From the NCBI GenBank assembly GCA_964412585.1, contig CAYPPJ010000002.1, positions 77,720 through 141,719 of the forward strand: a DNA stretch of 64,000 bases, in the 5' to 3' direction. The notes beneath the pieces are model-generated. The model was not told the origin of the DNA, searched no databases, and worked only from the letters and a program-made list of their open reading frames with translations. Positions within the stretch are counted from its first letter, which is position 1. Each line of letters opens with the position of its first letter. The position numbers and the translations under genes were made by a program. The DNA comes from an uncultured Candidatus Saccharibacteria bacterium. Its GTDB lineage: Bacteria > Patescibacteriota > Minisyncoccia > Phycocordibacterales > PALSA-1337. Shown in pieces: positions 2,508 to 62,222 of this stretch.

Positions 2508-2564
2508 CGAATCTTTCATTTTCGCTCGTGTATTTTGCAAGCCTGTGCTAGTATTGTCGCATTA

Positions 2565-2637
2565 CGGAGCGTGGTGTAACGGCTAACATTTCTGTTTTGG
2601 GAACAGAAGACTCCGGGTTCGAATCCCGGCGCTCCGA
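2565..2637 (+). tRNA. tRNA-Pro (anticodon TGG)
   Basis: Acceptor CGGAGCG/CGCTCCG, anticodon stem TCTGT/ACAGA with loop TTTGGGA, T-arm CCGGG-TTCGAAT-CCCGG. Confidence 0.8.
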
Positions 2638-2645
2638 CACGAAGG

Positions 2646-9003: not shown

Positions 9004-9012
9004 AGTATATAT

Positions 9013-9041
9013 TTGTCGATTTTCGCCGACAGATTTACAAT
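9013..9041 (+). promoter_or_regulatory. promoter TTGTCG-N17-TACAAT with an inverted repeat TGTCG-N8-CGACA (9014-9031) inside the spacer; candidate operator between regulator 8185..9003 and the binding-protein gene at 9070
   Basis: Read directly from ATTTGTCGATTTTCGCCGACAGATTTACAAT. Confidence 0.5.
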
Positions 9042-9069
9042 ACCACAGCTTCGGGTTATGCTCAAGCCC

Positions 9070-21615: not shown

Positions 21616-22722
21616 ATGAATAAATATATAAAAATAGGTATTGGTATCGTGGTTATAGTAGTTGTGATTATTATTGGTGTTACGAATGAAAGTTCACAAA
21701 AAAAGTCAGGTTCGCTCAAGATAGGGGTGATTTCTTCGCTGACTGGTGATTATGGCGCAATCGGAGAAAATACAGTAAAGGGTATTAAAGTCGCGCAGCG
21801 TGTATATGAGAAAAAGACGGGCACAAAAGTGGAGCTTGTTATCGAAGATGATGGAGGTGATGGTGTAAAAGGTCTTTCTGCCTTTAGCAAGCTTACGCAG
21901 GTCAACCATGTCGATGGCATGATTAATTTCTTTACTACGACGATGGACTCGATCTACGCACCAGCAAAGACTCAAGGGTATCCAGTGATGATGGTGGCAT
22001 TTCAGGCGAATAACGTAGCTGACGACTTCGTCTTTCAGATGACGCCAAGTAATGATGATGTCTGGCCAAAGTTTGTAAAGCTTGTGAAGAATGGTGACTA
22101 TGACTTGAGTAATGTCGCACTCGTGTATTCCAAGGCGGCAGCACAAGAATCATTTGTCAAATCATTTGCCTTGAATTATGCAGGCAAAGCTACTCAGTTC
22201 GGTATTTCTTCAGGACAGAATGATTTCCGTTCTGATGCTGCGAAGATTGCCGCATTCAAACCAACGACGGTTGTCTTCTTCATGACGCCGGATGATGGGG
22301 CGCTTCTCACCAAGACGTTGGTACCAATGTTAAGCAAGTCGACAAAGCTTATCTACGACATTCAGTTAGTGACGGGTACCGCGAATTATAAAAAGATTCT
22401 CGGAGGTTTCTCATCTATCGAGGGTGCCATGACCTTGAGTCCAGAAGGTGAGCGTAGTCAGGATTTCATTGACGCATATCATGAGCTTTATCCAAATGAA
22501 GAACCAGGATTTCTTGCGGATTTCGGTTACGACACATTCATGGTCTACATGGAGTCGTATGACGAAGATAATGCAACTTGGATCTCGAACCTTCGCTCGT
22601 ACACCGGAAAAGGCCCGAGCGGACAGATAAAGTTCAACGATAAGGGTATTCGAGCCCCTGATATGGTGGTTAAGAAGGTGGTTGGCGGGGAATTGCAGAC
22701 GACGGCGAGATTGGAGTTCTAA
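21616..22722 (+). CDS. type-1 periplasmic binding protein (LivJ-like), membrane-anchored, with no transporter partner
   Basis: MNKYIKIGIGIVVIVVVIIIGV anchor, then SLKIGVISSLTGDYGAIGENTVKGIKVAQRVYEKKTGTKVELVIEDDGGD. Confidence 0.65.
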   Translation: MNKYIKIGIGIVVIVVVIIIGVTNESSQKKSGSLKIGVISSLTGDYGAIGENTVKGIKVAQRVYEKKTGTKVELVIEDDGGDGVKGLSAFSKLTQVNHVDGMINFFTTTMDSIYAPAKTQGYPVMMVAFQANNVADDFVFQMTPSNDDVWPKFVKLVKNGDYDLSNVALVYSKAAAQESFVKSFALNYAGKATQFGISSGQNDFRSDAAKIAAFKPTTVVFFMTPDDGALLTKTLVPMLSKSTKLIYDIQLVTGTANYKKILGGFSSIEGAMTLSPEGERSQDFIDAYHELYPNEEPGFLADFGYDTFMVYMESYDEDNATWISNLRSYTGKGPSGQIKFNDKGIRAPDMVVKKVVGGELQTTARLEF

Positions 22723-28190: not shown

Positions 28191-28219
28191 GGGCCCCCTA
28201 TAGGAGTGGGGCCTTTTTT
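28191..28219 (+). terminator. terminator; also overlaps the last codons of the regulator on the minus strand
   Basis: GGCCCC-ctataggagt-GGGGCC followed by T6. Confidence 0.55.
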
Positions 28220-28968
28220 ATTTGTGTTGTTTCAAGGAGTTTCCACATTGACAGGAATAGATTACGCAGCATGTTTGCGATAGCAGGCGACTCAATGATG
28301 ATTGCGTACTCTTCTTTCTCTTTAAAGGAAAAAAAGGCTAGTTTGTTGGCGTATATATCTATCGTGCCATGGATGGGCGAGCCAGAGGGAAGTAAACGAG
28401 TCTCTCGGTAGGAATTTGTCACCAGATCAGGGTCTGATGTCCTATCTCCTGCGCTTGAAGTGATGAGATATGAAAAAATTTTGAGCTGTTCACGGCGTTT
28501 GAGCCACTGAGGAAAGAATTTTGGAAGCATACTCAACATATCGAGGTTAGAAAATGCATGTAGTTCACGAATATTTTCACGATCAAGGGTTTCGAGGATG
28601 TCATCGAAGACGAATTTTACGCCACTTGATCCCATGTAAAGTTTTGCGGCAGGCATAAGCCTGTCGTGGCCACGGAGGCTCATAAGTTCCGGAATTGCAG
28701 AACGAATAAGGGCTTCTTTTTCCTGTTGGATTTTCAATAATCGATTTGGACTCTCGGCAGAGTAGTAAATGACATTGTTTTTCTTCCAAGAAGAGACGTA
28801 ACCTTGTGCTGTAAGGGAATCGAGAGTGTGATATGCGGTTGTACGTGCAATGCCTGTCTCTTTTGCCAGCATGAAAGCCGTCGCTTCGGCGTGTCGTAAC
28901 AATGAAGTGTAGATGGTCGCCTCATTTTCACTGAAACCACATTTTTTGAGGGTATTTTGTATTGACAT
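28198..28968 (-). CDS. TrmB-family HTH transcriptional regulator (paralog 6)
   Basis: MSIQNTLKKCGFSENEATIYTSLLRHAEATAFMLAKETGIARTTAYHTLDSLTAQGYVSSW; C-terminus ...FLSMWKLLE. Confidence 0.6.
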   Translation of the reverse strand: MSIQNTLKKCGFSENEATIYTSLLRHAEATAFMLAKETGIARTTAYHTLDSLTAQGYVSSWKKNNVIYYSAESPNRLLKIQQEKEALIRSAIPELMSLRGHDRLMPAAKLYMGSSGVKFVFDDILETLDRENIRELHAFSNLDMLSMLPKFFPQWLKRREQLKIFSYLITSSAGDRTSDPDLVTNSYRETRLLPSGSPIHGTIDIYANKLAFFSFKEKEEYAIIIESPAIANMLRNLFLSMWKLLETTQIKKAPLL

Positions 28969-28990: not shown

Positions 28991-29100
28991 TACTTTTTAT
29001 GCATAAAATATGGCCTTACTATAGTTTATTTTAATCATAAGTGCAAATATGTGTAAAATTAAAGGACTATATTGACATAATTTGTAATAATGTTCTTGTT

Positions 29101-30213
29101 ATGAAAAAAATATCCATTATTACCTGTGTGGCTATCATTATTATTGGTGTGTTGATCTGGAAAGGCCCCAATCAGGAAACGGTCATAAAAATTGGTGTCG
29201 TGGGACCATTTACCGGTAGCGCGGCTAGTTTTGGCGATCTGATGCAACGTGGGTTGGATTTGGGACTGGCATCGCTCACCGATGAACAGAAGTCGCGCAT
29301 TCAGATTATAAAAGAAGATGATGCGTGTAGTGGTAAGAATGCTGTCAGCGCGGTCAAAAAACTCATAGAGGTTGATAAGGTCAATTATATTATTGGCCCG
29401 CTATGTAACGAATCGACATTAGCGACAGAAACTTTATTTGAAGATAACAAGGTTATCTCAGTAAGCATTGGATTGCCCTCAAATAAGATTGCCGAGATGG
29501 GCCCGTACCATTTCTCGTTTTCTCCAGAGATTGAATATCTTATGAAGACGCTTTCGCAGAAAGTTATTGACGAAAATATGCACCGCGTAGCAGTAATCCA
29601 CATAACTTCTGCAATGGAAGAGGAGAACTACTCCAATTTTGTTAAGCACTTCAGGGAATTGGGCGGGGTTATTGTTGCTGACGAGGCGGCACCGAAGGGT
29701 GCAAGTGATTTTCGAGATCTTGTCCTGAAAGTAAAGCAGTCCAAGCCGGACGCGATCGTAATCATGGCGTATCGTGAAGGGGAATTGAACACATTACTTA
29801 AGCAATTATCTGATGCTGGCCTGGGAAATCTGCCGAAATTTGGCATCCATGCGGTTCAAACTCCTGCGGTTCTCAACGTGAAGGATCTTGCCGAGGGACT
29901 TATCTATCCGTATCCTGCCGACAAAACGGCGAATGAGTCGGCTGCTGCCTATGCACGCATGTATCGCGAGAAATATGATGCGGATCCAGATATTTCTTCC
30001 TCGAATACCTATGACTCACTGCGAATATTTGTCACTTCAATCGAGAAATGTGGCTATTCAAATAAAGAATGTGTACGTGATTCAATTGCACAGCTTAAGA
30101 ATTATCAAGGTGCCAACGGAAGCTTGTCACTTGATGAGAGAGGAGTGGGCACGTATAAGGAGATTATGTTGAAGGTGGTTCACGATGGAAAGTTTGAGAA
30201 ACTGCCCGAATAG
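29101..30213 (+). CDS. type-1 periplasmic binding protein (LivJ-like), membrane-anchored, with no transporter partner
   Basis: Start placed at the internal Met (MKKISIITCVAIIIIGVLIW); then VIKIGVVGPFTGSAASFGDLMQRGLDLGLAS. Confidence 0.65.
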   Translation: MKKISIITCVAIIIIGVLIWKGPNQETVIKIGVVGPFTGSAASFGDLMQRGLDLGLASLTDEQKSRIQIIKEDDACSGKNAVSAVKKLIEVDKVNYIIGPLCNESTLATETLFEDNKVISVSIGLPSNKIAEMGPYHFSFSPEIEYLMKTLSQKVIDENMHRVAVIHITSAMEEENYSNFVKHFRELGGVIVADEAAPKGASDFRDLVLKVKQSKPDAIVIMAYREGELNTLLKQLSDAGLGNLPKFGIHAVQTPAVLNVKDLAEGLIYPYPADKTANESAAAYARMYREKYDADPDISSSNTYDSLRIFVTSIEKCGYSNKECVRDSIAQLKNYQGANGSLSLDERGVGTYKEIMLKVVHDGKFEKLPE

Positions 30214-30228: not shown

Positions 30229-32013
30229 ATGCGTCAGTGTGGCGAATTTGCTACAATTACCCCAATGCTCATCGAAGACACCCAGCTCTATAAATTCATC
30301 CTCGACTCTGGCCTCGTCTCAAAAGAGGATCTTGAGAATGCCAAGAAGGAGGCTGACAAAAATGAGAAGCGTCTCGGTGATATTCTCGTGACTGCGGGCA
30401 AAATTACCGCGGACAATCTCCGCCGTATGGAAGCATACGTGCTCGGCATCCCCTTCGTTGACCTCAAAGGAAAGAAAATAGATTTCGATACACTCTCGCT
30501 TATTCCCGAGCCGATCGCGCGTGGTCACAACATTGTTCCATTTAAAAAGACCGATACTACCTTGGAAGTTGCCATGCTAGATGTGAACGATCTTTCAGCT
30601 ATCGATTTCATCAAAAAGAAAGTTAACCTCAAGATTCAGCCACGTCTGACTGATTCTGACTCTCTCAAAGAAGTCTTGGTGCAATATCAAAAGAGTTTGA
30701 AGGCGGAATTTGGCGACCTTATCCAAAAGGAAACCGCGACGCTCAAGACGATTGCGGAAGATAATGGAGAACCGGCATCTGAAGCCGACATGAAAAAGTT
30801 GGCCGAGGATCTGCCTGTGGTGCGTATTGTTGATACTTTGATCAAGCATGCAGCTATTCAGAATGCATCTGATATTCATATTGAACCGATGGATAATCAA
30901 GTGCTCGTTCGCTACCGTATTGATGGACTCCTACATGACGCGATGGTACTGCCGAAGCAGGCGGGCCCCTCTGTGTCTGCACGTATCAAGGTGCTTTCCA
31001 ACTTGAAGCTCGATGAAAAACGTTTGCCGCAGGACGGTCGTTTCAAGGTGGACATGAACAACGAAAAAGTGTCTTTCCGTGTCTCTATTTTGCCGACCTA
31101 TTATGGAGAAAAGATCGTTATGCGTCTCTTGCGTGAGAGTATTTCAGGATTTACGCTGGAGTATTTGAACTTTCATGGCGAAGGATTGGAGCGCATCCAT
31201 CACGCTCTCAAGCAAACAACGGGCATGATTCTGACTACGGGTCCGACTGGTTCCGGTAAAACCACGACGCTCTATACGATGCTGGATTTGCTCAACACAC
31301 CTGACGTAAATATTTCTACCATCGAAGATCCTATCGAATATCAGATCGGCCGCATCAATCAGACCCAGGTTCGTCCGGAGATTGGCTTCTCATTTGCACA
31401 GGGAATACGCACGCTCGTTCGTCAGGACCCAGATATCATCATGGTGGGTGAAATTCGTGATAATGAAACGGCCGCTTTGGCAGTGAACGCGTCGCTCACT
31501 GGTCACTTGGTGCTTTCCACCCTGCACACCAACAGTGCTGCTGGAGCAATTCCACGCCTTTTGGATATGGGAGTCGAGTCATTCTTGCTTGTTTCTACAC
31601 TCAACATTGTCATTGGCCAGCGTCTCGTCCGACGTCTCACTGATTCGAAGGAAAAGTATGATTTGAGCAAGGCTGAATATGCACAGCTTGAGAAAATCGT
31701 TGACATGAATCGTGTGCTCGATGCGTTGAAAGCTGACAAAATTGTAAAACCAAGTGATACCGTCAAGGATCTGACCTTCTGGAAAGCGGTTCCTGCGGGA
31801 GATGATGATGGGTTCAAGGGTCGTGTTGGTATCCACGAGATTCTCAAAGTGAATCAAACTATCAAAGATTTAGTCATGAAGAATGCCACGGCTTCAGAGA
31901 TTGAGGCTCAGGCAAAGAAGGAGGGAATGCTCACGATGTTGGAAGATGGTATCTACAAATGTGTTGCGGGTATGACGACGATTGAAGAGGTGCTTCGTGT
32001 GGTCTCAGAGTAG
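30229..32013 (+). CDS. pilB: type IV pilus assembly ATPase PilB (GspE family)
   Basis: Walker A motif in LTTGPTGSGKTTTLYTML, the His-box/Asp-box region, and a T2SSE N-terminal domain. Start may be the Met at 30265. Confidence 0.85.
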   Translation: MRQCGEFATITPMLIEDTQLYKFILDSGLVSKEDLENAKKEADKNEKRLGDILVTAGKITADNLRRMEAYVLGIPFVDLKGKKIDFDTLSLIPEPIARGHNIVPFKKTDTTLEVAMLDVNDLSAIDFIKKKVNLKIQPRLTDSDSLKEVLVQYQKSLKAEFGDLIQKETATLKTIAEDNGEPASEADMKKLAEDLPVVRIVDTLIKHAAIQNASDIHIEPMDNQVLVRYRIDGLLHDAMVLPKQAGPSVSARIKVLSNLKLDEKRLPQDGRFKVDMNNEKVSFRVSILPTYYGEKIVMRLLRESISGFTLEYLNFHGEGLERIHHALKQTTGMILTTGPTGSGKTTTLYTMLDLLNTPDVNISTIEDPIEYQIGRINQTQVRPEIGFSFAQGIRTLVRQDPDIIMVGEIRDNETAALAVNASLTGHLVLSTLHTNSAAGAIPRLLDMGVESFLLVSTLNIVIGQRLVRRLTDSKEKYDLSKAEYAQLEKIVDMNRVLDALKADKIVKPSDTVKDLTFWKAVPAGDDDGFKGRVGIHEILKVNQTIKDLVMKNATASEIEAQAKKEGMLTMLEDGIYKCVAGMTTIEEVLRVVSE

Positions 32014-32036
32014 TAAATAGCGTAAACTTATACCAA

Positions 32037-33257
32037 ATGTCCCATTTTGTTTTTAAAGCCAAGAAATCTACCGGCGAAATATATTCGAGCGAGAAGGACG
32101 TGGCTGACCGCTACGAACTCTACAAGCTCGTGCGCGAGAGTGGAGATGAGATTGTTGAGATACGCGAAACTGCATCATCGAAGGGTTTGCATAGGGAAAT
32201 TTCATTTGGAGGACTCCTAAGTCGAGTCAAGATGATTGAAAAGATCAACTTTGCTCGCAATCTCGGCTCAATGCTTGAGGCTGGCCTCGCACTCTCACGC
32301 GCGCTGTCGGTCTTGGAACGCCAGGCACGTAATAAAACCTTCAAAAAAATAATTGGCGATCTTATCATTGAAATCAGTAAAGGCTCAACACTTTCTGATT
32401 CCATGGCGAAGTATCCGAAAGCATTTAACAAACTCTTCGTATCTATGGTTCGTGCAGGTGAGCAGAGCGGTACGTTGTCTGATTCGCTCAAAGTGATTTC
32501 GGTGCAGATGGACAAGAGTTTTACACTTGAGCGCAAAGTTAAGGGTGCACTTATTTACCCCGGTGTGATTATGTGTGCAATGGTGCTCATCGCTATATTG
32601 ATGTTCACCTTTGTTGTCCCTACATTGACCAAGACATTCGTCGAGCTCAATGTGACTCTACCTTTGAGTACTCGTATTGTCCTTGGTATCAGTGATGTAT
32701 TCCAAAACTATGGGATCATTGTCTTTTTACTCATACTAATACTAGCGGGGATTTTTAGATGGTGGACAAAAACTGCCTCAGGGAAACACATTCTTCATGC
32801 TGCGGTTTTGAAGATACCTATCATAGGCTCTCTTGTCCAAGAAATTAACACAGCTCGTACTGCGCGCACTCTGTCGTCGCTTCTCGGCTCTGGAGTTGAT
32901 GTGGTGGAGTCCGTAAATATCACTGCGGGAGTTATTCAAAATGTACATTTCCGTGCGGTCCTGGAAAAGGCCCGTGAAGCTATAAAAAAAGGAGAATTGA
33001 TGTCAAAAGTATTTGCCGAGGCGGACAAGCTGTATCCAGTTTTCTTGTCTGAGATGATGAGCGTGGGTGAAGAGACGGGTAAGACGGGAGAGATGTTGAT
33101 TGGTGTCGCGCATTATTACGAGGATGATGTTGAACAAAAGACCAAGGACATGTCGACTGTTATTGAGCCATTTTTGATGATTATCATCGCAGCAGCGGTC
33201 GGGTTCTTTGCTATCTCGATGATCTCACCAATGTACTCGCTTGTCGACGCGGTTTAA
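32037..33257 (+). CDS. pilC: type IV pilus platform protein PilC (GspF family)
   Basis: Two T2SSF repeats and three TM helices; the GspF-type motif ...VGEETGKTGEMLIGVA is present. Confidence 0.8.
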   Translation: MSHFVFKAKKSTGEIYSSEKDVADRYELYKLVRESGDEIVEIRETASSKGLHREISFGGLLSRVKMIEKINFARNLGSMLEAGLALSRALSVLERQARNKTFKKIIGDLIIEISKGSTLSDSMAKYPKAFNKLFVSMVRAGEQSGTLSDSLKVISVQMDKSFTLERKVKGALIYPGVIMCAMVLIAILMFTFVVPTLTKTFVELNVTLPLSTRIVLGISDVFQNYGIIVFLLILILAGIFRWWTKTASGKHILHAAVLKIPIIGSLVQEINTARTARTLSSLLGSGVDVVESVNITAGVIQNVHFRAVLEKAREAIKKGELMSKVFAEADKLYPVFLSEMMSVGEETGKTGEMLIGVAHYYEDDVEQKTKDMSTVIEPFLMIIIAAAVGFFAISMISPMYSLVDAV

Positions 33258-33260
33258 TAC

Positions 33261-35051
33261 ATGAGACGTAATCTATATAATGCATTTACACTCGTAGAAG
33301 TACTTGTCGGTGCGGCTGTCTTTTTGGTCATTGCTTTGGCCGCATATAATGGATATGCCAGTCTCTTTAAATTAGTTAATGCCAGTCAAACAAAAATTAC
33401 TGCACTGAACCTCGCAAATGAGCAGTTTGAAATAGCGCGCAACATACCTTATTCGGACGTAGGTATTGTAGGTGGTATTCCAAAAGGGAAGTTGTCACAC
33501 GTCCAGACGTTAAATCGAGGCGGAATAAACTTTACTGTTACGACGACGGTACGCAACCTTGATTTACCTTTCGACGGCACCATCGGAGGAAATCCAAATG
33601 ACTTGTCCCCAGCAGATAACAAACTTGTTGATATCACAGTTTCTTGTAGCGTGTGTGTCAATTTCAAACCAATCAGTTTGACCGGTCAGGTAGCTCCCAA
33701 AAACCTTGAGACTGCCTCTAATAATGGGGCACTTTTCGTCCGTGTTTTTGATGCCAATGGTCAGCCGGTTCAGGGAGCGTCGGTTCATATTGTGAATGTC
33801 GCGACGTCTACTACAATCATCATCGATGATGTCACTGATTCAACCGGCATGTTGCAAATAGTTGATGTTCCTCCAGGCACCAACGCATATCGTATTACTG
33901 TTTCTAAATCGGGATATTCTACAGATCGCACATATCCACAAGGTGGCACTGACAATCCATCACCATCAAAACCGGATGCGACGGTATTACTTCAGCAGGT
34001 TACTCAAGTGAGTTTTGCTATAGACCGACTCAGTAGTGTGGCCGTTGCGAGCGTGACGCCGCTCTGTGTCGTCGTGCCAAGTTTCGATTTTGCCTTGGTT
34101 GGGTCAAAACTTATTGGCACAAATGTGCCGAAGTTTTCACAGAATATGGTTACAGATGGTGGGGGATTATTGAATCTTACAAATAATATGGAATGGGACA
34201 CGTATACAGTTATTCCTACCGATACGGCATATGATATTGCTGGTCTGAATCCGCTCAATCCGGCGACACTCAATGCAAATTCATCTCAACAAATCCAAAT
34301 TATCGCAATCCCGCGCAATCCTCGCAGTATTCTAGTTACCGTCAAGGATAGTGCAACTCAGTTACCGATATCTGATGCGCAAGTGACTCTTTCAAAGTCG
34401 GGATGGAGTAGTACCCTGACCACCGGTAAAGGATTTATAAACCAGACAGATTGGTCGGGAGGGAGCGGTCAAGCCTCATGGTCAAATACCACAAAATATT
34501 GGGCGGATAGCAGTGGGCTCGATGTGACGACGGTTCCGGGAGTGGTGACACTCGGTCTGGCTTTTGGCTCGTACAATCCATCCGGGTCGTTGCAGTCATC
34601 AACTTTCGATACTGGTTCACCGAGTAATTTTTATACACTGACATGGTCTCCAACCGATCAGCCGGTTGCCGCAGGAACCAATTCAGTAAAATTACAAATC
34701 GCTACCGCAAGCACATCTTCACCATACGACTGGCTCTACTTTGGACCAGATGGAACATCGGCTACCTACTATACTGTCCCAAATACACCAATTCATTCTA
34801 TACACTCAGGTGATCGTTATCTCCGCTACAAGGCCTATCTATCCACCGATACGGCAACATCAACGCCGAGCATTACCGATGTTGCATTCACATTTACTTC
34901 GTCGTGTACTCCTCCAGGCCAGGTCATATTTCCAGGATTATCTTCAGGCTCATACCATGTACACGTCACCAAGACGGGGTATTCTGACTTTGATTATGAT
35001 GTCTCGGCCGCCTCAAATTGGCAGGAGGTACAGGCAGTCATGACCCCATAA
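33261..35051 (+). CDS. large prepilin-type N-terminal cleavage/methylation domain protein (596 aa) with a carboxypeptidase-regulatory-like beta domain
   Basis: N-terminus MRRNLYNAFTLVEVLVGAAVFLVIALAAYNGY has the class-III G/FTLxE prepilin signal; the ...VRVFDANGQPVQGASVHIVNVATSTT... segment is CarboxypepD_reg-like. Confidence 0.6.
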   Translation: MRRNLYNAFTLVEVLVGAAVFLVIALAAYNGYASLFKLVNASQTKITALNLANEQFEIARNIPYSDVGIVGGIPKGKLSHVQTLNRGGINFTVTTTVRNLDLPFDGTIGGNPNDLSPADNKLVDITVSCSVCVNFKPISLTGQVAPKNLETASNNGALFVRVFDANGQPVQGASVHIVNVATSTTIIIDDVTDSTGMLQIVDVPPGTNAYRITVSKSGYSTDRTYPQGGTDNPSPSKPDATVLLQQVTQVSFAIDRLSSVAVASVTPLCVVVPSFDFALVGSKLIGTNVPKFSQNMVTDGGGLLNLTNNMEWDTYTVIPTDTAYDIAGLNPLNPATLNANSSQQIQIIAIPRNPRSILVTVKDSATQLPISDAQVTLSKSGWSSTLTTGKGFINQTDWSGGSGQASWSNTTKYWADSSGLDVTTVPGVVTLGLAFGSYNPSGSLQSSTFDTGSPSNFYTLTWSPTDQPVAAGTNSVKLQIATASTSSPYDWLYFGPDGTSATYYTVPNTPIHSIHSGDRYLRYKAYLSTDTATSTPSITDVAFTFTSSCTPPGQVIFPGLSSGSYHVHVTKTGYSDFDYDVSAASNWQEVQAVMTP

Positions 35052-35076
35052 GTGAAAGAATGGTACAATACTACTC

Positions 35077-35688
35077 ATGAGGGGATTTACGCTCGTTGAA
35101 GTAATATCAACTATTGCCATCTTGGCGGTTATCATGCTTGCTGTGGGTGCATTTCAGTATGATGTTCTTAATTATAATAGGGTAGGAAGTGTAACGCTGA
35201 CAAATATCCAGGAAGTGCAGGCCATTTTAAAGACGATGACACGAGAACTGCGTTCAATGGAATCGGGTGGCGATGGAGCGTATCCTATTGTTGCTGCGTC
35301 TACGAGTACGATTACATTCTATGCCGACGTCAATCATGACAATCTGAAAGAAAAGATTCGTTACTACATAGGAACCACTACATCAACAGTGAATAAAATT
35401 TATCGCGGAGTTATAAATCCAACAGGATCGCCTGCGGTATACAATGCAAATACTGAGACCTTTAAAATATTGGTGACCGGCGTACGACCTTCCACCACAA
35501 CCCCACTATTTCAATATTTTGATGGGATGTATTCAGGTACATCAACACCGATGACGTACCCGCTCAACCTGACATCAATTCGACTTGTAAAAATTACTAT
35601 TCCGATAGACACCGATCCAAATCGATCGCCTATTATACGAGTGTTCACTACTCAGGCCGAGCTTCGTAACCTCAAAGATAATTTATGA
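35077..35688 (+). CDS. prepilin-type minor pilin / pseudopilin
   Basis: MRGFTLVEVISTIAILAVIMLAVGAF N-terminal methylation motif. Confidence 0.6.
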   Translation: MRGFTLVEVISTIAILAVIMLAVGAFQYDVLNYNRVGSVTLTNIQEVQAILKTMTRELRSMESGGDGAYPIVAASTSTITFYADVNHDNLKEKIRYYIGTTTSTVNKIYRGVINPTGSPAVYNANTETFKILVTGVRPSTTTPLFQYFDGMYSGTSTPMTYPLNLTSIRLVKITIPIDTDPNRSPIIRVFTTQAELRNLKDNL

Positions 35689-37178
35689 AGCAAAATCTGT
35701 TGAAAAAAATATATTTACATACAAAAAATAGTACAGGTATCATTCTTGTAAATGTGCTTATATTTGCCGCGATCGCCATCAGTGTGACGAGTGGCTTGGT
35801 AGGCTGGGGTGCGACGGTGCTCAAAACGACTCGCACACTCGATTCTCGCGAACAGGCATTTCAGATTGCCGAGGCGGGAATCGAATACTATCGTTGGCAC
35901 TTGGCTCATGCGCCGACTGACTATCGCGATGGTACCAACGGATCTGGGCCTTATGTGCACAGTGTGAAAGATGCTGATGGTGACACGATCGGTCAATACT
36001 CACTTACGATCACGGCACCACCTGTCGGATCGACGATCGTCAAAGTCCGTTCGACGGGCACTCTGACATCTGACCCTTCGATCTCGAGGACGATATTGGC
36101 AACCTTGGCTATTCCATCTCTGGCTAAGTATGCCGTTGTTGCCAATCAGAATATGCGCTTTGGTGAGGGTACAGAGGTGTTTGGGCCGATACATTCGAAC
36201 GCCGGTGTTCGTTTCGACGGTGTCAGTCACAACCTGATTACAAGTTCAGTGTCTTCCTACAATGACCCTGATAGTGATGATTGTAACAACAACAATTCAT
36301 TTGGCGTACATACGTGCATCAATCCAGATGACCCTTCTCCGCCAGCTGCCGTACCGAGCCGTCCTGATGTATTCATGGCGGGGCGACAATTTCCGGTTCA
36401 GTCCTATGATTTTAATGGTCTAACGATCGATCTGTCGCAGATGAAAACTAATGCCCAATCAAATGGTGTATACCTTCCTGCGTCAGGGTCCCAAGGCTAC
36501 CATATTGTGCTAAAAACAAATGATACGTTTGATGTGTACAAGGTTACCGCTTTGCAGTCGGCCCCCAACAACTGTACGAATAGCAACAACCAGACAGATT
36601 GGGGAACGTGGAGTGTAAAGACGCAAGTACACCCTGTCTCGGGAGCGAATAATTCACCACAGAACTATGCATTTCCTGCTAATGGCGTTATTTTCGTCGA
36701 AGATCATGTGTGGGTTGATGGTGCCGTCAATGGGGCACGTCTGTCGATTGCGGCAGGGAAGTTTCCTGATAACACCTCGACCCGAAAGGACATCATGATA
36801 AATAATGACCTTACTTATACAAGTTACGATGGTACTGATGTCGTTTCTCTTGTTGCACAGAGAAATGTCACTACGGGATTATTCAGTGACGACAATCTTC
36901 GTGTTGATGCGGCACTTGTGGCGCAAAATGGCAGGGTGGGGCGCTTCTACTATGATTCGGATTGCAAATCAGGAGGCACCAACTACTACAACAGAAATTC
37001 GTTGACACTGTATGGCATGATTGCGACCAATCAGCGTTATGGGTTTGCGTATACTGATGGTACTGGCTACGACACGCGAAATATCATCTATGATAGCAAC
37101 TTGTTGTATGGTCCACCCCCATCATTTCCGCTGACCTCAAGTCAGTATCAGACCATTTCTTGGCAGGAAGTACAGTAG
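35685..37178 (+). CDS. PilX-like pilus-associated protein (N-terminal anchor, then a large extracellular domain)
   Basis: N-terminal TM helix followed by ...REQAFQIAEAGIEYYRWHL, which resembles the PilX N-terminal domain. It overlaps the preceding gene by 4 nt, indicating an operon. Confidence 0.45.
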   Translation: MKQNLLKKIYLHTKNSTGIILVNVLIFAAIAISVTSGLVGWGATVLKTTRTLDSREQAFQIAEAGIEYYRWHLAHAPTDYRDGTNGSGPYVHSVKDADGDTIGQYSLTITAPPVGSTIVKVRSTGTLTSDPSISRTILATLAIPSLAKYAVVANQNMRFGEGTEVFGPIHSNAGVRFDGVSHNLITSSVSSYNDPDSDDCNNNNSFGVHTCINPDDPSPPAAVPSRPDVFMAGRQFPVQSYDFNGLTIDLSQMKTNAQSNGVYLPASGSQGYHIVLKTNDTFDVYKVTALQSAPNNCTNSNNQTDWGTWSVKTQVHPVSGANNSPQNYAFPANGVIFVEDHVWVDGAVNGARLSIAAGKFPDNTSTRKDIMINNDLTYTSYDGTDVVSLVAQRNVTTGLFSDDNLRVDAALVAQNGRVGRFYYDSDCKSGGTNYYNRNSLTLYGMIATNQRYGFAYTDGTGYDTRNIIYDSNLLYGPPPSFPLTSSQYQTISWQEVQ

Positions 37179-42409: not shown

Positions 42410-43557
<1,148 letters not shown>

Positions 43558-43611
43558 CCCCATATTTGCAGACCTGCTTTGCCTGGTTTAGAAATTTGAA
43601 CACGCAAAGAC

Positions 43612-43654
43612 ATCTTCAGCGAATCTTTATCATTTCTTCAGCGTTTCTTCAGTT
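43612..43654 (+). repeat. 43-bp direct repeat, copy 1 (ATCTTCAGCGAATCTTTATCATTTCTTCAGCGTTTCTTCAGTT), 22 nt upstream of the comEC N-terminal ORF
   Basis: Identical to 45700-45742; contains the internal sub-repeat TCTTCAGCG twice plus TCTTCAG. Confidence 0.8.
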
Positions 43655-43676
43655 GATTTAGCTACACTGCCTCCCT

Positions 43677-45077
43677 ATGAACAAGGGGGTCATCGTTTTT
43701 TGGATGTTGCTGATCGGATGCGCTGTGACGCGTGTGATTTTTTCATTGGATCAAGACCCGCTACACATCGGTGCATGTGAGAAACAATTCGTAACTGGTC
43801 TCGGGACCACCACTGCCGATCCTGAACGTAAAGAGGGTGGGCAAGTCATGATTGTATCGGTGCAGGAGTTATTTGTGGCGACTACTACCGCAGACAGAAC
43901 TGTTCACTCTCTTGGCGATTCGTGCGGTTCTCACATTTTAATCCGACTCAAAACAAAACTGTATCCACGTTTTTCTTACAATGACACTATTACGTTTTCA
44001 GGAAAAATTTCTAAACCGTTTAACTTCAAGAGTGAAACGGGTAGGGCTTTTGATTATGTTGGCTATTTAGCAAAAGACGACGTGTTTTATGAAATAAAAA
44101 GTGCCGTGGTCACGTCAGTGCCGGCAGATGAGCCCAAGAAATTATCTTATGGAGGAATTTCTGGCATTCTTTTTTATATGAAGCGTCGGTTTGTCTCACA
44201 TCTTGAACATATTCTTGGTGAACCCCACGCCGCACTTGCCGCTGGCCTTGTTGTCGGCGAAAAAAGCGCCTTAGGAAAAGATTTGCTGAATGATTTTCGC
44301 ATTGTCGGACTGATCCACATTGTTGTTCTTTCAGGTTTTAACATCACTATCGTTGGGGATGCGATGAGAAAATTACTTTCATTTGTGCCACGCGTATGGG
44401 GAATTGTGGTTGGTGGCATCGGTATTGCATTGTTTGGTGTGATGGTTGGCGGGGGAGCGACAGTGGTTCGTTCTTGCTTCATGGCCGGTATTGCGTTATC
44501 CGCTGATCTTATTCGTCGCGACTATCAGGTCACTCGCGCGCTTATCTTTGCGGGTCTTTTGATGCTGATACAAAATCCAATGATTTTGCTCCATGATCCA
44601 TCGTTTCAGCTCTCATTTTTGGCTACACTTGGACTTATTTTGCTCGCCACCCCTATTGAAAAACGCCTGACCAAGATTCCGGAAAAGTTTGGTATGCGCG
44701 GGATTGTGGCGGCGACTATTGCCACGCAGATTTTTGTTTCGCCGTACATTCTCTATATGATGGGAAGTATTTCTATCATTGGGATGGTTGTGAACATTCT
44801 AGTCCTGCCGGTCATTCCAATAACAATGCTCATAGTATTCCTGACTGGCGCTGCGGGATTTATTTCACTCGATATTTCACAAATATTCGGATGGATCGCG
44901 CACTTATTACTCACCTATGAGCTACACATGGTCGAGTGGTTCGCCCGCATTCCGTTTGCATCAGTAACCCTACCAATGTTTTCGGGCTGGTGGGTGGTGG
45001 GATTTTACGTGGTCTTCTTCGGTGTATTCATATTCTTCAAGCGCGGACAAAAAAGGCGACCTAAGCCGCCTCTTTGA
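43677..45077 (+). CDS. comEC: ComEC/Rec2 competence channel, N-terminal polytopic membrane part (split gene)
   Basis: Competence-domain motifs (...FRIVGLIHIVVLSGFNITIVG...) and multiple TM helices. The expected C-terminal metallo-beta-lactamase domain is missing here and is encoded separately at 45763. Confidence 0.7.
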   Translation: MNKGVIVFWMLLIGCAVTRVIFSLDQDPLHIGACEKQFVTGLGTTTADPERKEGGQVMIVSVQELFVATTTADRTVHSLGDSCGSHILIRLKTKLYPRFSYNDTITFSGKISKPFNFKSETGRAFDYVGYLAKDDVFYEIKSAVVTSVPADEPKKLSYGGISGILFYMKRRFVSHLEHILGEPHAALAAGLVVGEKSALGKDLLNDFRIVGLIHIVVLSGFNITIVGDAMRKLLSFVPRVWGIVVGGIGIALFGVMVGGGATVVRSCFMAGIALSADLIRRDYQVTRALIFAGLLMLIQNPMILLHDPSFQLSFLATLGLILLATPIEKRLTKIPEKFGMRGIVAATIATQIFVSPYILYMMGSISIIGMVVNILVLPVIPITMLIVFLTGAAGFISLDISQIFGWIAHLLLTYELHMVEWFARIPFASVTLPMFSGWWVVGFYVVFFGVFIFFKRGQKRRPKPPL

Positions 45078-45093
45078 TCTGATGCAGCCAATA

Positions 45094-45675
45094 CTACTGA
45101 GCTTTCTCAAAATTCTCCTCAATTACACCCCAGTTGAGATTCTTAAAGAAATCCTCGACGTAGTTTTTCTTGCCTGATGGCTGATAGTCAGCAACAAAGG
45201 AGTGTTCCCACATATCAAGGGCAATGATTGGACTGACGCCAGTCAAATGACCGAAATGTTGTTCATCAACCCAGTACTGAATGAGGGTATCGGTATTTTT
45301 GTCGTACCCAAGCATCGCCCATCCGACACCGCGAGTTGTTGCAAGATTTTTGAAAATGGTCATGAATGTTTCGAAGGATCCGGTCCATTCGACTATTTTC
45401 TTATAGAGTGCCGAGCTCGTGGAGATATCCTGTGGCCCACCTTCAAAAGCACTGAAATAGTATTCGTGGTTGCGCATACCATCAAACTCGAATGCCTGGC
45501 GACGATAGGTCTCACGGCGCGCATATTCAGGGATCGTTTGGTTCTCGACGACCTCGTGGACGAGGTTGAAATGCTTTACATAGCCCTCGTAGAGTTTGAG
45601 GTGCTCTTCGATGGTTTTTTCTGAAATACCAATAAGTTTTGGAATCTTGAATGTTTGTGGGGTGAATGTTTTCAT
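45094..45675 (-). CDS. sodA: Fe/Mn superoxide dismutase
   Basis: LPKLxY-type N-terminus, then HHxxHH..., ...GVGWAML... and DMWEHSF metal-ligand motifs. The start is taken at MKTFTPQ. Confidence 0.85.
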   Translation of the reverse strand: MKTFTPQTFKIPKLIGISEKTIEEHLKLYEGYVKHFNLVHEVVENQTIPEYARRETYRRQAFEFDGMRNHEYYFSAFEGGPQDISTSSALYKKIVEWTGSFETFMTIFKNLATTRGVGWAMLGYDKNTDTLIQYWVDEQHFGHLTGVSPIIALDMWEHSFVADYQPSGKKNYVEDFFKNLNWGVIEENFEKAQ

Positions 45676-45699
45676 GAAGGAATTGTACAACAGAATAGA

Positions 45700-45742
45700 A
45701 TCTTCAGCGAATCTTTATCATTTCTTCAGCGTTTCTTCAGTT
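45700..45742 (+). repeat. 43-bp direct repeat, copy 2, 20 nt upstream of the comEC C-terminal ORF
   Basis: Exact copy of 43612-43654. Confidence 0.8.
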
Positions 45743-45762
45743 TCATTTGATATGGTTTTGAC

Positions 45763-46704
45763 ATGACCACATCAGCACCTATTTTTGTGAAGCCACTCCT
45801 CATTGGGGTAGCGATTACAGCGCTTTGTACTGGCGTCAGCTTGTACGTGTGGCGCGAACAGCATCGCAAGCCAGTGCTCGAGGTGTATGTATTTGCACTG
45901 AAAAGCGGCCGATCGATGTTCATTCGTACTCCCGATGATTACCGTGTTCTCATAGATGGCGGTGCTAATGCTGATATTGTGCGCCAGATTACGCAGATTG
46001 TGCCATTTTATTCACGTCGTATCGACGCAATCATTGCTACCAACACAGATGGCAAGAATGTGTCGGGCCTTATTGATGTTGTTAGTCGTTATGATGTCGG
46101 TCGGACCTATATCCCGCGGCTGACTCTTGAAAATCTAGGGATTGCGACTTCAACTGACGAAATTTACGAGACATTCATCGAAACTCTTGCCGATAAAAAG
46201 ATAGAAACGAGTGAGATTGTAGCGGGGGACACACTTCATCTAGGTGAAGAAGTTATGTTGCACGCTCTGTTTCCGCCACCCGCACATGCGTTTGAATATT
46301 CCAAAGCCAGTGCGCCGGAAATTCTTTTTACTCTCTCATATAGGTCAGCTTCACTGACGTTCATGGGTGATGCGAGCAAGAAAGTACAAAAATACATTAC
46401 CTCATCGAGCAGTGAGATTATCGCCGACTCGGATGTCCTCGTCGTCTCACACGCGGCGGCGTCCGCACATATGTCGACCGAATTGATGGACATTCTACGA
46501 CCCGAGAGTCTCATATATGAAAAAGCAGTATCAAAATCTACCACACAATCCTCGAAGACTTCTTCGAAGAAAAATAAAGTAGTTGATCCGTTGGCAACAG
46601 TTCTTAACGGGAACCGATTTAATCTGAAGGAGATGGGGACTACTCTCATTACTTCAAACGGGGAAGATGTAGAAATTAAAAAAGCCGGCAGTGCCGGATT
46701 TTAA
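45763..46704 (+). CDS. ComEC C-terminal metallo-beta-lactamase-fold domain protein (second part of the split comEC)
   Basis: N-terminal TM helix, then ...MFIRTPDDYRVLIDGGANADIVRQI...IDAIIATNTDGKNVSGL..., typical of the ComEC MBL domain. Confidence 0.6.
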   Translation: MTTSAPIFVKPLLIGVAITALCTGVSLYVWREQHRKPVLEVYVFALKSGRSMFIRTPDDYRVLIDGGANADIVRQITQIVPFYSRRIDAIIATNTDGKNVSGLIDVVSRYDVGRTYIPRLTLENLGIATSTDEIYETFIETLADKKIETSEIVAGDTLHLGEEVMLHALFPPPAHAFEYSKASAPEILFTLSYRSASLTFMGDASKKVQKYITSSSSEIIADSDVLVVSHAAASAHMSTELMDILRPESLIYEKAVSKSTTQSSKTSSKKNKVVDPLATVLNGNRFNLKEMGTTLITSNGEDVEIKKAGSAGF

Positions 46705-47940: not shown

Positions 47941-48013
47941 CAAGAGATTAGTAACTAGTAATTAGAGGATGCATTTTTCTAATTACTCATTACTAATTAC
48001 TATTTACTAACTT
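47941..48013 (+). repeat. AT-rich imperfect-palindrome element, copy A (GAGATTAGTAACTAGTAATTAGAGG...TTCTAATTACTCATTACTAATTACT), abutting the rpsL start
   Basis: Same family as 60911-61007 and 61200-61291; folds as a long hairpin. Confidence 0.7.
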
Positions 48014-49003: not shown

Positions 49004-49555
49004 TTGAGAATGGTTGAAAAGAAATTGTCCGAAACAAGTTTGGTACTTCCTGTTACTCCAGAATTCATAGAAAGGAGGATATTTTTGGTGCGTGGCAAGA
49101 AGGTTATGCTGAGTCCGGATTTAGCCGAACTATACCAGGTCGAGCCGCGTGTCCTAATCCAAGCAGTTAAAAGGAATCAAAAGAGGTTTCCTGATGATTT
49201 TATGTTTCAATTGTCTGTAGAAGATGTCGATTCTTTGAAATCACAATTTGTGATTTCAAAATCTGGTCAAGGTGGTAGTCGTCACTTGCCCTACGCTTTC
49301 ACCGAGCTCGGTGTCGCTATGCTTTCATCGGTCCTCAAAAGCGACCGGGCCGTCCAGATGAACATCTACATCATGCGCGCATTCGTGAAGTTGCGCGAAA
49401 TGCTGGCTACCCACAAGGATTTAGCAGAAAAGATTGAGGCTTTGGAAAGGGAACAGAAGGAGCAAGGCAAGGATATTACGATTATTTCCAGAATGGTTAG
49501 TAAGTTACTGGCAGAGAAGGAAAAACTGAGGAGTGCGATAGGGTTTGAGGCGTGA
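49004..49555 (+). CDS. ORF6N-domain (KilA-N-like, phage-associated DNA-binding) protein inserted into the str operon
   Basis: LVRGKKVMLSPDLAELYQVEPRVLIQAVKRNQKRFPDDFMFQLS...RHLPYAFTELGVAMLSSVLKSDRAVQMNIYIMRAFVKLRE matches the ORF6N pattern IRGxKVMLDxDLAxLYGVxTxxLNQAVKRNxxRFPxDFMFQLT...YLPYAFTEQGVAMLSSVLxSxxAVxVNIxIMRAFV. Confidence 0.6.
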   Translation: MRMVEKKLSETSLVLPVTPEFIERRIFLVRGKKVMLSPDLAELYQVEPRVLIQAVKRNQKRFPDDFMFQLSVEDVDSLKSQFVISKSGQGGSRHLPYAFTELGVAMLSSVLKSDRAVQMNIYIMRAFVKLREMLATHKDLAEKIEALEREQKEQGKDITIISRMVSKLLAEKEKLRSAIGFEA

Positions 49556-60910: not shown

Positions 60911-61007
60911 GGTAGTAGTTAAGTAATTAGTAATTAGTAACTAGTAATTAGAGAATGATGTGTTTGTTTTTCTAATCTCCAATTACTAGTTACTAATCTC
61001 TTATTGT
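60911..61007 (-). repeat. AT-rich imperfect-palindrome element, copy B, filling the rpmI-rplT intergenic region
   Basis: GTAATTAGTAATTAGTAACTAGTAATTAGAGAATG...TTCTAATCTCCAATTACTAGTTACTAATCTC; the arms pair over about 15 bp perfectly plus additional imperfect pairs. Confidence 0.7.
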
Positions 61008-61199
61008 TTATAAATTGACGAGGAATCGACTCTTGGCCTTATTGTCCATGTGAATGGTATTCATACGGCGCTTGTTGGTGCTGGTGCGAGTTCGCTCACG
61101 TGCGTTGAAGTGGTTTTGGCCAGCCTTGCGCGACAAAATCTTGCCATTTTTGGTGACCTTGAGACGCTTGAGATATGATTTGGTGGTTTTGATACTCAT
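61008..61199 (-). CDS. rpmI: 50S ribosomal protein L35
   Basis: MSIKTTKSYLKRLKVTKNGKILSRKAGQNHF... Confidence 0.85.
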   Translation of the reverse strand: MSIKTTKSYLKRLKVTKNGKILSRKAGQNHFNARERTRTSTNKRRMNTIHMDNKAKSRFLVNL

Positions 61200-61291
61200 A
61201 AATTTAGTAATTAGTAACTGGTAATTGGTAATTAGAGAATCGCAAGCCGTACCTTCTAATTACTATTTACTAGTTACTAATCTCTATGTGA
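61200..61291 (-). repeat. AT-rich imperfect-palindrome element, copy C, filling the infC-rpmI intergenic region
   Basis: TAGTAATTAGTAACTGGTAATTGGTAATTAGAGAATC...TTCTAATTACTATTTACTAGTTACTAATCTC. Confidence 0.7.
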
Positions 61292-61810
61292 TTACTTCTT
61301 TTCTATAACAATACTCAATCCCTTCGGTCCTTTGGTTACGTCCTGCGCGACCTTGTATTCGACGGTCACGAGCTTGAGGAGGCGTTCGAGACGTTCCTTA
61401 AGAAAGTTGAGGTCCATATACTTGGATCGTCCGATGAGGAAGAGGTCTATCTTGACTCGATTACCTTCGCCGAGCCATTCTGAGACTCGCTTGGCCTTGA
61501 GTTCGAGGTCATGCTCGCCAGTTCCAATCTTGACTTGAACTATCTTGAGTTCACTGGTCTGGACTTTGGCTTTGGCAGCTTTCTCCTTCTTCTTTTCATC
61601 GTACAGGTACTTTCCATAATCCATTATCTTCGCAACCGGGGGAATAGCGGTCGGGGAGATTTCGATCAGGTCCAGAGTGCGCTTTTGGGCTTCTGCAAGG
61701 GCGACAGAGAGGGTGATAACACCGAGATTTTCTCCTTCGGCTGTTATAACGCGCAACTCAGGCGCTTTTATCTGATGATTTATTTTGACTCGAATGGCCA
61801 AGTGATTGGG
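61292..61810 (-). CDS. infC: translation initiation factor IF-3 (probable non-AUG start)
   Basis: ...APELRVITAEGENLGVITLSVALAEAQKRTLDLIEIS... with a conserved C-terminal domain. The canonical N-terminus begins inside the ORF with no Met, consistent with the AUU/AUA start common for infC; the 5' coordinate is approximate. Confidence 0.75.
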   Translation of the reverse strand, partial: PNHLAIRVKINHQIKAPELRVITAEGENLGVITLSVALAEAQKRTLDLIEISPTAIPPVAKIMDYGKYLYDEKKKEKAAKAKVQTSELKIVQVKIGTGEHDLELKAKRVSEWLGEGNRVKIDLFLIGRSKYMDLNFLKERLERLLKLVTVEYKVAQDVTKGPKGLSIVIEKK

Positions 61811-61907
61811 ATTACAGGGGTTATTTATAACATACAGCGCTGTATTCTGCAACCCGCGAGCCCTATCCACATTGCGGTTATATGAGGGTGGGGGGTACAA
61901 TAGAGGC

Positions 61908-62222
61908 ATGCCTGGCGAGTCAGTTCAATTCTCACAAACTAAACATCACCGCAAGTCGGTAGCAGCACTTGTTGTGGCGGTGGTCGTGTTTGGTATTATC
62001 ATTGCCAACTATTTGTCTTCTGACAAATCCCAGCAGGAAGTGCAAACATCAGTTAGGTCACAGACTCCACAAGAACGTCTGGTAGCAGTATTGGACGCCT
62101 CACCTGATGTGTCAGTTTCGGTAGATCAAAAAAATCGTGCTGTTAACGAATTGAAAAAAAGTCGAGCCACACTTTCAAATAGTCAAAAGTCAGACATTAT
62201 TAGCTCGTTACAAGAACGTTAA
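61908..62222 (+). CDS. hypothetical small membrane protein
   Basis: Start taken at the internal Met (MPGESVQF...) with one TM helix; it is divergent from infC. Confidence 0.35.
   Translation: MPGESVQFSQTKHHRKSVAALVVAVVVFGIIIANYLSSDKSQQEVQTSVRSQTPQERLVAVLDASPDVSVSVDQKNRAVNELKKSRATLSNSQKSDIISSLQER

Follow-up and report, generated by a model that had tools for sequence, protein, structure and literature searches.

We analyzed a 64,000-nucleotide stretch of contig CAYPPJ010000002.1 from an uncultured bacterium (hereafter the window), in which the gene for the DNA-import channel ComEC is split in two and an exact 43-bp direct repeat precedes both halves. The first half, ComEC-N (open reading frame ORF1, 43677-45077, forward strand), encodes a 466-amino acid protein with an OB-like DUF4131 domain and the transmembrane Competence channel domain (Pfam PF03772, E-value 1e-47; PF13567, the DUF4131 model, E-value 1.7e-6, under its gathering score). 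It aligns to positions 112-364 of TIGR00361 and to residues 143-486 of a solved 801-residue ComEC (30bt_A). The second half, ComEC-C (ORF2, 45763-46704, forward strand), encodes a 313-amino acid protein with an N-terminal transmembrane anchor and a degenerate metallo-beta-lactamase (MBL)-like domain. No match was obtained for it in a Pfam search; it matches TIGR00361 (ComEC_Rec2) at positions 423-629 (E-value 3e-6), and the profile of its family (A1, 39 sequences) matches residues 530-746 of 30bt_A (E-value 1.3e-13) as well as 9ic4_A. These matches identify ORF2 as the MBL-like C-terminal part of ComEC, and since ORF1 falls on residues 143-486 and ORF2 on residues 530-746, the two correspond to consecutive, non-overlapping parts of one ComEC. 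The gap between them is 686 nt long and holds sodA in antisense orientation (45094-45675, reverse strand), which codes for a 193-amino acid Fe/Mn superoxide dismutase (Pfam Sod_Fe_C, E-value 9e-20, and NCBIfam SOD models).

An earlier reading of the letters alone (the sequence-only reading) had described this arrangement of a split comEC with sodA antisense between the halves, and the domain assignments by Pfam, TIGR00361 and the solved ComEC bear it out. Its label of a metallo-beta-lactamase domain for the second half stands only in part: the domain is homologous to the C-terminal domain of ComEC, but the HxHxDH-type metal motif is lost. In ORF2 the metal-binding motif is replaced by ATNTDGKNVSGL; in all 39 members of the ComEC-C family, ATNT(D/E)GKNVSGL is aligned with THPDADHIGGL of ComEC, and a single His is left of the later HH motif. 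Many other invariant residues are kept in this family despite the ATNTxGKN sequence in place of THxDxDH. Judging from these replacements, the stand-alone ComEC-C family is probably not a nuclease, and with such a degenerate MBL-like half one has to ask what enzyme breaks down, in these organisms, the strand that is not transported.

The repeat, ATCTTCAGCGAATCTTTATCATTTCTTCAGCGTTTCTTCAGTT, is present in two identical copies at 43612-43654 and 45700-45742, both on the forward strand, and the identity of the two copies ends sharply at both borders of the 43-mer. A match was found in none of 100 dinucleotide-preserving shuffles, even at 3 mismatches. The repeat ends 22 nt before the ATG of ComEC-N (43677) and 20 nt before that of ComEC-C (45763), the spacing that the sequence-only reading had given for what it took to be identical elements. 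Four independent assemblies of the same organism from metagenomes (L001-L004) each contain both copies, and the pair is therefore not an assembly artefact; Logan short-read contigs (L007-L010) were broken inside the 43-mer. No Rfam match was found for positions 43300-46000.

Inside, the 43-mer consists of approximately four tandem 11-nt units, as seen both by Tandem Repeats Finder (period 11) and by an 11-nt self-shift. The window's own units are TCTTCAGCG, and they contain no A4-6 or T4-6 tract. In array 1, upstream of ComEC-N, the four 11-bp-phased units carry the cores TTCA/TTTA/TTCA/TTCA at 43615, 43626, 43637 and 43648 (-62, -51, -40 and -29 from the ATG). In array 2, upstream of ComEC-C, the cores are at 45703, 45714, 45725 and 45736 (-60, -49, -38 and -27). 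When the window was scanned with a position weight matrix (PWM) of four units, arrays 1 and 2 scored 38.0 and 35.0, respectively, and the next-best site 7.2 (99% shuffle threshold, 12.3).

Paired arrays in relatives with a split comEC

Homologs of the stand-alone ComEC-C yielded 148 matches, all of ~300 amino acids and all from metagenome-assembled genomes (MAGs) of Paceibacteria, Parcubacteria or Taylorbacteria. The gene order RecJ / RNaseH / ComEC-N / sodA (antisense) / ComEC-C / L28 / M50 / rpsL / rpsG recurred in the first three relatives and then in nearly all of 68 species-level loci, at 35-60% protein identity. The split together with the sodA synteny is common to ~60 Taylorbacteria/Paceibacteria species, and 56 of the 59 species loci with both halves have sodA between them (the exceptions are L026, L028 and L045). 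Judged by this distribution, both the comEC split and the sodA synteny are ancient. Many of the MAGs with the Taylorbacteria-type locus (L018, L024-L026 and others) are titled 'uncultured Candidatus Saccharibacteria', which looks like mislabelling.

The first three relatives also had a direct repeat before both halves, with lengths and identities of 43 nt and 100% (L015), 66 nt and 86% (L011) and 53 nt and 75% (L013). To extend this comparison, the 160 nt upstream of ComEC-N were compared with the 200 nt upstream of ComEC-C in the 59 species by best ungapped match. In ~43 of them the within-genome match exceeded the 95th percentile of cross-genome pairs (18.5; mean 10.9), and the maximum for shuffled sequences was 11.5. 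Identical bases between the two regions reached, for example, 64 of 65 in L031, 79 of 85 in L023 and 40 of 40 in L070. In total, ~47 of the 59 species have their own array pair at both genes, with sequences that differ between species. Where the unit motif has drifted (L011, L034 and L041), both copies are affected alike. In L026 and L045, where ComEC-C directly follows ComEC-N, the first array is kept and the second is absent, and in L028, which has no sodA, both arrays are present. Most relatives with the same split carry array pairs of their own; the absence of the repeat from all such relatives was what the sequence-only reading had named as an argument against its own interpretation.

That reading had offered, as one option, that the repeat is the footprint of the duplicative event that inserted sodA. 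The two copies do bracket an inserted-looking sodA plus the first half of the gene. However, a passive scar of an event that split comEC or brought in sodA is scarcely credible given the age of the arrangement: the proteins are 40-60% identical across species and the repeats are often still perfect, whereas a neutral scar would have decayed, so that their persistence counts against this origin. In addition, the array occurs without sodA (L028), is missing at ComEC-C in L026 and L045, and is present at other operons, including the unlinked loci L205-L214.

A further possibility is that the repeats are substrates for recombination, at which the 2-kb ComEC-N/sodA cassette would be excised, amplified or exchanged, as in phase variation or a mobile cassette. 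Exact 43-bp direct repeats flanking a 2-kb segment would suit such a role, and the homogenization of copies within genomes described below implies recombination between them. On the other hand, the segment contains only ComEC-N and sodA, with no recombinase or transposase; the synteny is fixed in ~60 species and the intact arrangement is found in all four independent assemblies; and arrays occur singly at unlinked operons, with their position locked to the -10 hexamer and the ATG. We regard a recombination cassette as improbable. Excision that would fuse the two comEC halves was rejected on geometry, because recombination between the repeats deletes ComEC-N. The end of a mobile element, an att site and a target-site duplication were also rejected, since there is no recombinase, the synteny is conserved and arrays occur singly elsewhere.

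Promoter-like geometry of the arrays

When upstream regions were aligned at the start codon, a common order was seen: 4-8 units, ~9-11 nt, a TAnnnT hexamer, 6-8 nt and the ATG. The PWM of the unit has an invariant TTnA core, in which n is never A, followed by preferences for T and C and by low-information positions (consensus wwyTTnATCnn). The unit forms TTTCTTnA and GGATTTnA often alternate, giving a 22-bp super-period. The cores keep a strict register: at ComEC-C they stand at -27, -38, -49 and -60 from the ATG in 13, 28, 29 and 25 of 51 species, respectively, and at ComEC-N they occupy these positions or lie 2 nt away from them. The distance from the last core to the hexamer is exactly 11 (or 22) nt. 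In the window, the putative -10 element of ComEC-N (TACACT, 43663-43668, forward strand) starts 11 nt past the last TTCA core, with 8 nt between its end and the ATG; of the 47 species with arrays, 36 have TAnnnT at -12 or -14. For ComEC-C, the candidate is an extended -10-like element, TGATATGGT (45748-45756, forward strand), whose hexamer (45751-45756) begins 11 nt past the last core and is separated from the ATG by 6 nt; a hexamer at -12 is present in 34 of 51 species.

Across the window, TAnnnT stands at -12 to -14 before most genes, and almost none of the genes has a Shine-Dalgarno sequence (for example, the genes at 4754, 7425, 35077, 37215, 56461 and 57848). With this hexamer 6-8 nt before most ATGs, a leaderless geometry looks like the norm of the genome. 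Several of these genes have a textbook promoter, TTGACA-N16-17-TAnnnT-N6-7-ATG (4754, 7425 and 20647-21474, among others). Unlike them, the predicted comEC promoters have no TTGACA at 16-18 nt spacing, and the region from -22 to -63 is occupied by the array. If leaderless genes are the norm, then the peculiarity of comEC is that an array stands in the place of the -35 element.

The same geometry bears on an action of the repeats in RNA, in which they would form a 5' leader bound by an RNA-binding protein or a small RNA. Pyrimidine-rich repeats could in principle be such a platform, but the conserved -10 hexamer is downstream of the array, at leaderless distance, in both genes. Upstream of the arrays there is no conserved promoter-like pattern and terminator-like hairpins are often found directly there (L011, L036 and L043), and Rfam offers no match. 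An RNA-level element is thus very improbable.

Long palindromic hairpins directly adjoin arrays in L043 (560-698 and 4821-4959), L084, L036 and L011 (3640-3740). In L043 the duplicated segment is 139 nt long, palindrome included, and its two copies differ on both arms. These hairpins may be terminators or insulators.

A different hairpin, CTCCCT-ATGAACA-AGGGGG (43671-43689, forward strand), encloses the start codon of ComEC-N and was flagged as terminator-like. Its 5' arm lies between the -10 hexamer and the ATG, the ATG is in the loop, codons 3-5 form the 3' arm, and a T-rich run follows. Across species (L011-L084) this region has a mean minimum free energy of -7.0, compared with -2.6 for shuffles, with z<-2 in 28 of 52 cases, and its arms covary. 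Cross-species folding gave no such hairpin at the starts of ComEC-C, rnhA or sodA. In a transcript that starts at the ATG the 5' arm would not be transcribed, so the hairpin would exist only on RNA reading through from rnhA, where, as far as its layout can tell, it could terminate transcription or block translation.

The sodA gene has its own -10-like sequence (TACAAT, 45682-45687, reverse strand, 6 nt from its ATG), as read from the sequence. In the window its predicted -35 position would overlap unit 1 of array 2, and in relatives the spacing between sodA and the array is longer and variable. We rejected sodA as the true target of array 2, because arrays occur without sodA in L028, L039, L061 and L205-L214. 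Five species that have sodA and no array at ComEC-C also contradict it.

The position of the array fits more than one mode of control. In one, a protein would polymerize over -22 to -63 and silence the com genes for as long as it stays bound; the array does lie across the -35 region and directly adjoins the -10 hexamer, and in the window it would cover the -35 position of sodA as well. However, the comEC promoters have no recognizable -35 hexamer, which is typical of activator-dependent promoters, and the same-face phasing to the -10 hexamer in both genes and ~50 species fits a contact between activator and polymerase, whereas steric occlusion needs no phasing. Repression or silencing is therefore a minority possibility, though one that deserves some weight.

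In another mode no dedicated regulator would be needed, and the phased T-rich units would act on RNA polymerase themselves, either through curvature or a UP-like effect or by being recognized by an alternative sigma factor. Consistent with this, the units are T-rich, are phased at about one helical turn and lie directly upstream of the -10 hexamer, and no regulator gene was found near the loci. On the other side, what is invariant is the TTnA core, with never an A at the variable position, and not an A or T tract, and the window's units lack A4-6 and T4-6 runs altogether. The units at -27 and -38 are also off the distance of a sigma-70 -35 element, with spacers of 9 and 20 nt, and we know of no sigma factor that reads promoters through four to eight repeated units, which counts against this mode. 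We consider it unlikely.

Genes behind the arrays and homogenization of the copies

The specificity of the arrays was examined by scanning 72 loci and the window (~760 kb) with the four-unit PWM, at a cut-off set to the 99th percentile of block-shuffled controls. The scan detected 54 arrays before ComEC-N, 57 before ComEC-C and 5 others. The latter included one mis-tagged ComEC-N site, two sites before an operon of T2SSE, T2SSF, pilin-like and ComEC-C genes, and one before a PemK-like gene. Within these ~760 kb, arrays occur almost only at the two comEC genes, with two copies of the repeat in the window; what would mark a generic dispersed repeat (REP- or MITE-like) is many copies at unrelated loci over a whole genome. 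A simplified pattern, TCTTNA repeated four times at 11-bp spacing, was too permissive: metagenome-wide it hit at least 120 unrelated loci, none of which encodes ComEC among the matches listed.

The operon behind the arrays in L039 and L061 is located directly after RNaseH and encodes a short T2SSE ATPase, a T2SSF platform protein, two proteins with pilin-like N-termini and ComEC-C, in the geometry array / 10 nt / TAGGAT / 6 nt / ATG. As the short ATPase has no MshEN domain, we call it ComGA-like. These two loci were combined with eight loci of relatives from searches with the ATPase family (n=10). An array above threshold, with the same geometry, was directly before the ComGA-like operon in nine of the ten, and the tenth had a remnant of two to three units. 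The source species' own ComGA-like locus was not among the eight; L209 is from the same sample as the source species and has an L013-type array. In L205, further arrays precede an N_methyl pilin gene and, in the same promoter geometry at 1951-2107 (reverse strand), a weak tRNA-Met(CAT)-like gene (tRNA model, 27.4 bits). L209 also has an array of this geometry, at ~810-945 (reverse strand), followed by a sequence that resembles a tRNA or tmRNA, in which the T-arm and acceptor end are clear and which gives a weak match to a permuted tmRNA (E-value 0.02). In L046, at 2470-3009 (reverse strand), a third array precedes a PemK/MazF-like toxin gene located between ComEC-N and sodA; this array is nearly identical to the ComEC-C array of that genome.

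The sequence-only reading had proposed a search for the 43-mer in front of other competence or pilus genes, and the outcome was divided: in the window, pilB/pilC included, there was none, whereas relatives have arrays at the ComGA-like operons and at a pilin gene. The type IV pilus locus of the window (30229-37178) encodes PilB with MshEN, PilC, two N_methyl pilin-like proteins, one of which carries CarboxypepD_reg domains, and a 497-amino acid protein. Its pilB/pilC (30229-33257), which has no array, is a longer paralogue that is distinct from the ComGA-like system of the relatives.

The copies within a genome are more alike than protein binding would seem to need. At the low-information positions of phase-aligned arrays, identity was 0.66 for arrays of one genome and 0.40 for arrays of different genomes. 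For 23 of the 47 genomes, the ComEC-N and ComEC-C arrays were more alike than the best of the 46 other genomes, compared with ~1 of 47 expected if the copies had diverged independently since an old duplication. This likeness extends to unlinked loci. In the MAG CAZHHB01, the array of the ComGA-like operon (L206) is the same over 43 nt as the ComEC-C array on another contig (L025), and in the ComEC-N array both 22-bp halves carry an identical two-base change, so the units appear to be homogenized within an array too. The array of L207 equals those of L015 and L037. In the alignment of L025 (A2; 2760-2800 versus 4925-4965), TCTAGAA occurs twice at ComEC-N and TCAGGAA twice at ComEC-C. Copies that are nearly identical within genomes and different between species are the pattern of concerted evolution. 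The close species pair L013/L018 shows an orthologous signal instead, which suggests that homogenization is episodic. For short promoter arrays, on different contigs as well, concerted evolution of regulatory DNA is seen here with unusual clarity.

Several other features of the window are noted here. It encodes five paralogous winged-helix regulators of the TrmB family, of ~250 amino acids each (3892-4659, reverse; 7425-8192, forward; 11425-12168, forward; 20647-21474, reverse; and 28198-28968, reverse). Each of their genes adjoins a Peripla_BP_6 binding-protein gene (4754-5875, 8956-10155, 10182-11261, 21616-22722 and 29041-30213), so that a module of regulator and binding protein is repeated. 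An ORF6N (KilA-N-like DNA-binding) protein (49004-49555) is encoded between rpsG and fusA, and the same position holds in several relatives. We considered it as the regulator of the arrays and dropped it as uninformative; it was seen in the flank of 12 of ~70 non-redundant loci of relatives. A second, different repeat type consists of tandem 7-nt arrays of CTAATTA / TAGTAAT, in 4-5 copies with inverted-repeat symmetry (47947-48010, 60913-60951 and 61204-61281). They are located upstream of rpsL and, at 60913-61281, beside the ORF of IF-3 (61292-61909, reverse strand).

Proposed control of comEC and comparison with known systems

The reading that we prefer, to which we give a probability of about two in three, is that the arrays belong to a factor-dependent competence promoter of the Pho-box kind, leaderless, that co-expresses both halves of ComEC. 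In this proposal, the 43-mer would be the upstream half of a dedicated promoter module that was duplicated before the two genes of one DNA-import channel. The module would consist of four head-to-tail 11-bp units (4-8 in relatives), each of about one helical turn, in place of the TTGACA -35 element. A DNA-binding protein would occupy the units as a head-to-tail oligomer on one face of the helix and recruit RNA polymerase, as PhoB and PhoP do at Pho boxes; occlusion of the polymerase seems less likely. With the -10 hexamer 6-8 nt before the ATG, the mRNA would be leaderless or nearly so. ComEC-N, ComEC-C and, in relatives, the operon of the ComGA-like ATPase, platform protein and pilins would be switched on together. 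As the antisense sodA bars co-transcription of the two halves, identical promoters would give them matched expression. The copies would be kept alike by repeated homogenization, through gene conversion or re-copying, at unlinked loci too.

The shared competence-type promoter or operator that the sequence-only reading had put forward is in this way well supported, by the conservation of the pairs in ~47 of 59 species, by their strict phase to the -10 hexamer, by the loss of the array at ComEC-C where the halves are adjacent, and by the arrays at ComGA-like operons and a pilin gene. A number of observations weigh against the promoter reading. Five species have sodA and no array at ComEC-C (L052, L056, L071, L074 and L077), and in several further species the arrays are weak or the unit motif has diverged. 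The PWM scan detected no third copy of the element in the 64-kb window. The arrays before the PemK-like toxin gene and the tRNA-like genes do not fit a pure competence regulon, and the near-perfect identity at spacer-like positions is beyond what protein binding alone explains. A tblastn search with E. coli PhoB over the window and the comEC loci found no homolog of this response regulator, and the only obvious regulators in the window are the five TrmB-like proteins. Finally, the -10 and leaderless assignments are based on sequence patterns.

A wider proposal, which joins these parts for Taylorbacteria and relatives and which we regard as tentative, is that a dedicated competence regulon is governed by one leaderless TTnATC module and an oligomerizing activator, with ongoing gene conversion among its copies. 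This regulon might comprise both ComEC halves, the ComGA-like pilus operon, the pilin gene and possibly a tRNA- or tmRNA-like RNA. Base-for-base identity of the module at unlinked loci might fix the stoichiometry of a split membrane channel, and the start of ComEC-N within the loop of a terminator-like hairpin might insulate this gene from upstream read-through.

Patescibacteria (the Candidate Phyla Radiation, CPR) account for a large share of bacterial diversity, do not synthesize nucleotides and are thought to depend on DNA uptake. We know of no competence regulator in the patescibacterial lineage of the host; to our knowledge, nothing has been reported on how DNA uptake is regulated in the CPR, and few cis-regulatory elements have been described there. 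In the literature that we found, competence has been shown experimentally only in Saccharibacteria, in a study that did not address its regulation (PMC10633639). Our literature searches, on ComEC fission and competence elements in Patescibacteria/Parcubacteria and on leaderless translation in the CPR, gave no description of anything of this kind, and a survey of ComEC evolution that we searched does not use the words 'split', 'fission', 'separate' or 'adjacent'. The module looks like the first recognizable competence control element in this ultra-small uncultured group. A promoter module that is defined by sequence and ties both ComEC halves to the pilus machinery offers a testable handle, and its motif can serve to list the regulon's members in complete genomes and as bait for the regulator. 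The locus is also a natural example of a fissioned gene whose halves, with an antisense gene between them, would be kept co-expressed.

Canonical ComEC/Rec2 is a single chain with OB, Competence and MBL nuclease domains (PMC6299819, PMC8579336, PMC12455585). ORF1 and ORF2 jointly cover consecutive stretches of the solved ComEC; they differ from the canonical protein in being two genes with an antisense sodA between them and not one polypeptide, and in that the MBL-like half has its own transmembrane anchor and lacks the metal-binding His/Asp motif.

With regard to the array, the low-affinity DnaA arrays of E. coli oriC, in which 9-mers in one orientation are separated by 2 bp, share with it the 11-bp period, the uniform orientation and four sites per array, and where the variable position is T, the unit includes TTATC, with which the DnaA box begins. 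However, this position is C or G in over half of the units, the rest of the 9-mer is not conserved, and the arrays are located at promoters and not at an origin.

The closest parallel is with Pho boxes, which are bound by PhoB in E. coli and by PhoP in Bacillus subtilis, in the latter as four TT(A/T/C)ACA repeats 11 bp apart at about -60 to -20; Streptomyces PhoP also binds 11-nt direct repeat units. As in Pho boxes, head-to-tail repeats with an 11-bp period, at least four of them, cover the stretch between about -22 and -63, the predicted -10 element follows ~10 nt after the end of the array, which replaces the -35 hexamer, and many arrays have the 22-bp super-period expected for dimers on two half-sites. 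Unlike Pho boxes, the core is TTnATC-like and not CTGTCAT or TTAACA, the targets are the comEC halves and ComGA-like/pilin operons instead of phosphate genes, the copies evolve in concert between loci, and an OmpR/PhoB-type regulator was not found in the window or the comEC loci.

Known competence elements include ComK boxes (pairs of AAAA-N5-TTTT), the cin-box of ComX/SigX (TACGAATA), the direct repeats of ComE (9 bp, ~21-bp period) and the CRP-S sites of Sxy/TfoX regulons. In sequence and architecture the arrays are unlike the ComK box, cin-box, ComE box and CRP-S, as only TTnATC-type 11-bp direct repeats were seen in ~100 aligned upstream regions. What they share with these elements is that comEC and the pilus/pseudopilus operon are marked by a common upstream element, which thereby defines a competence regulon.

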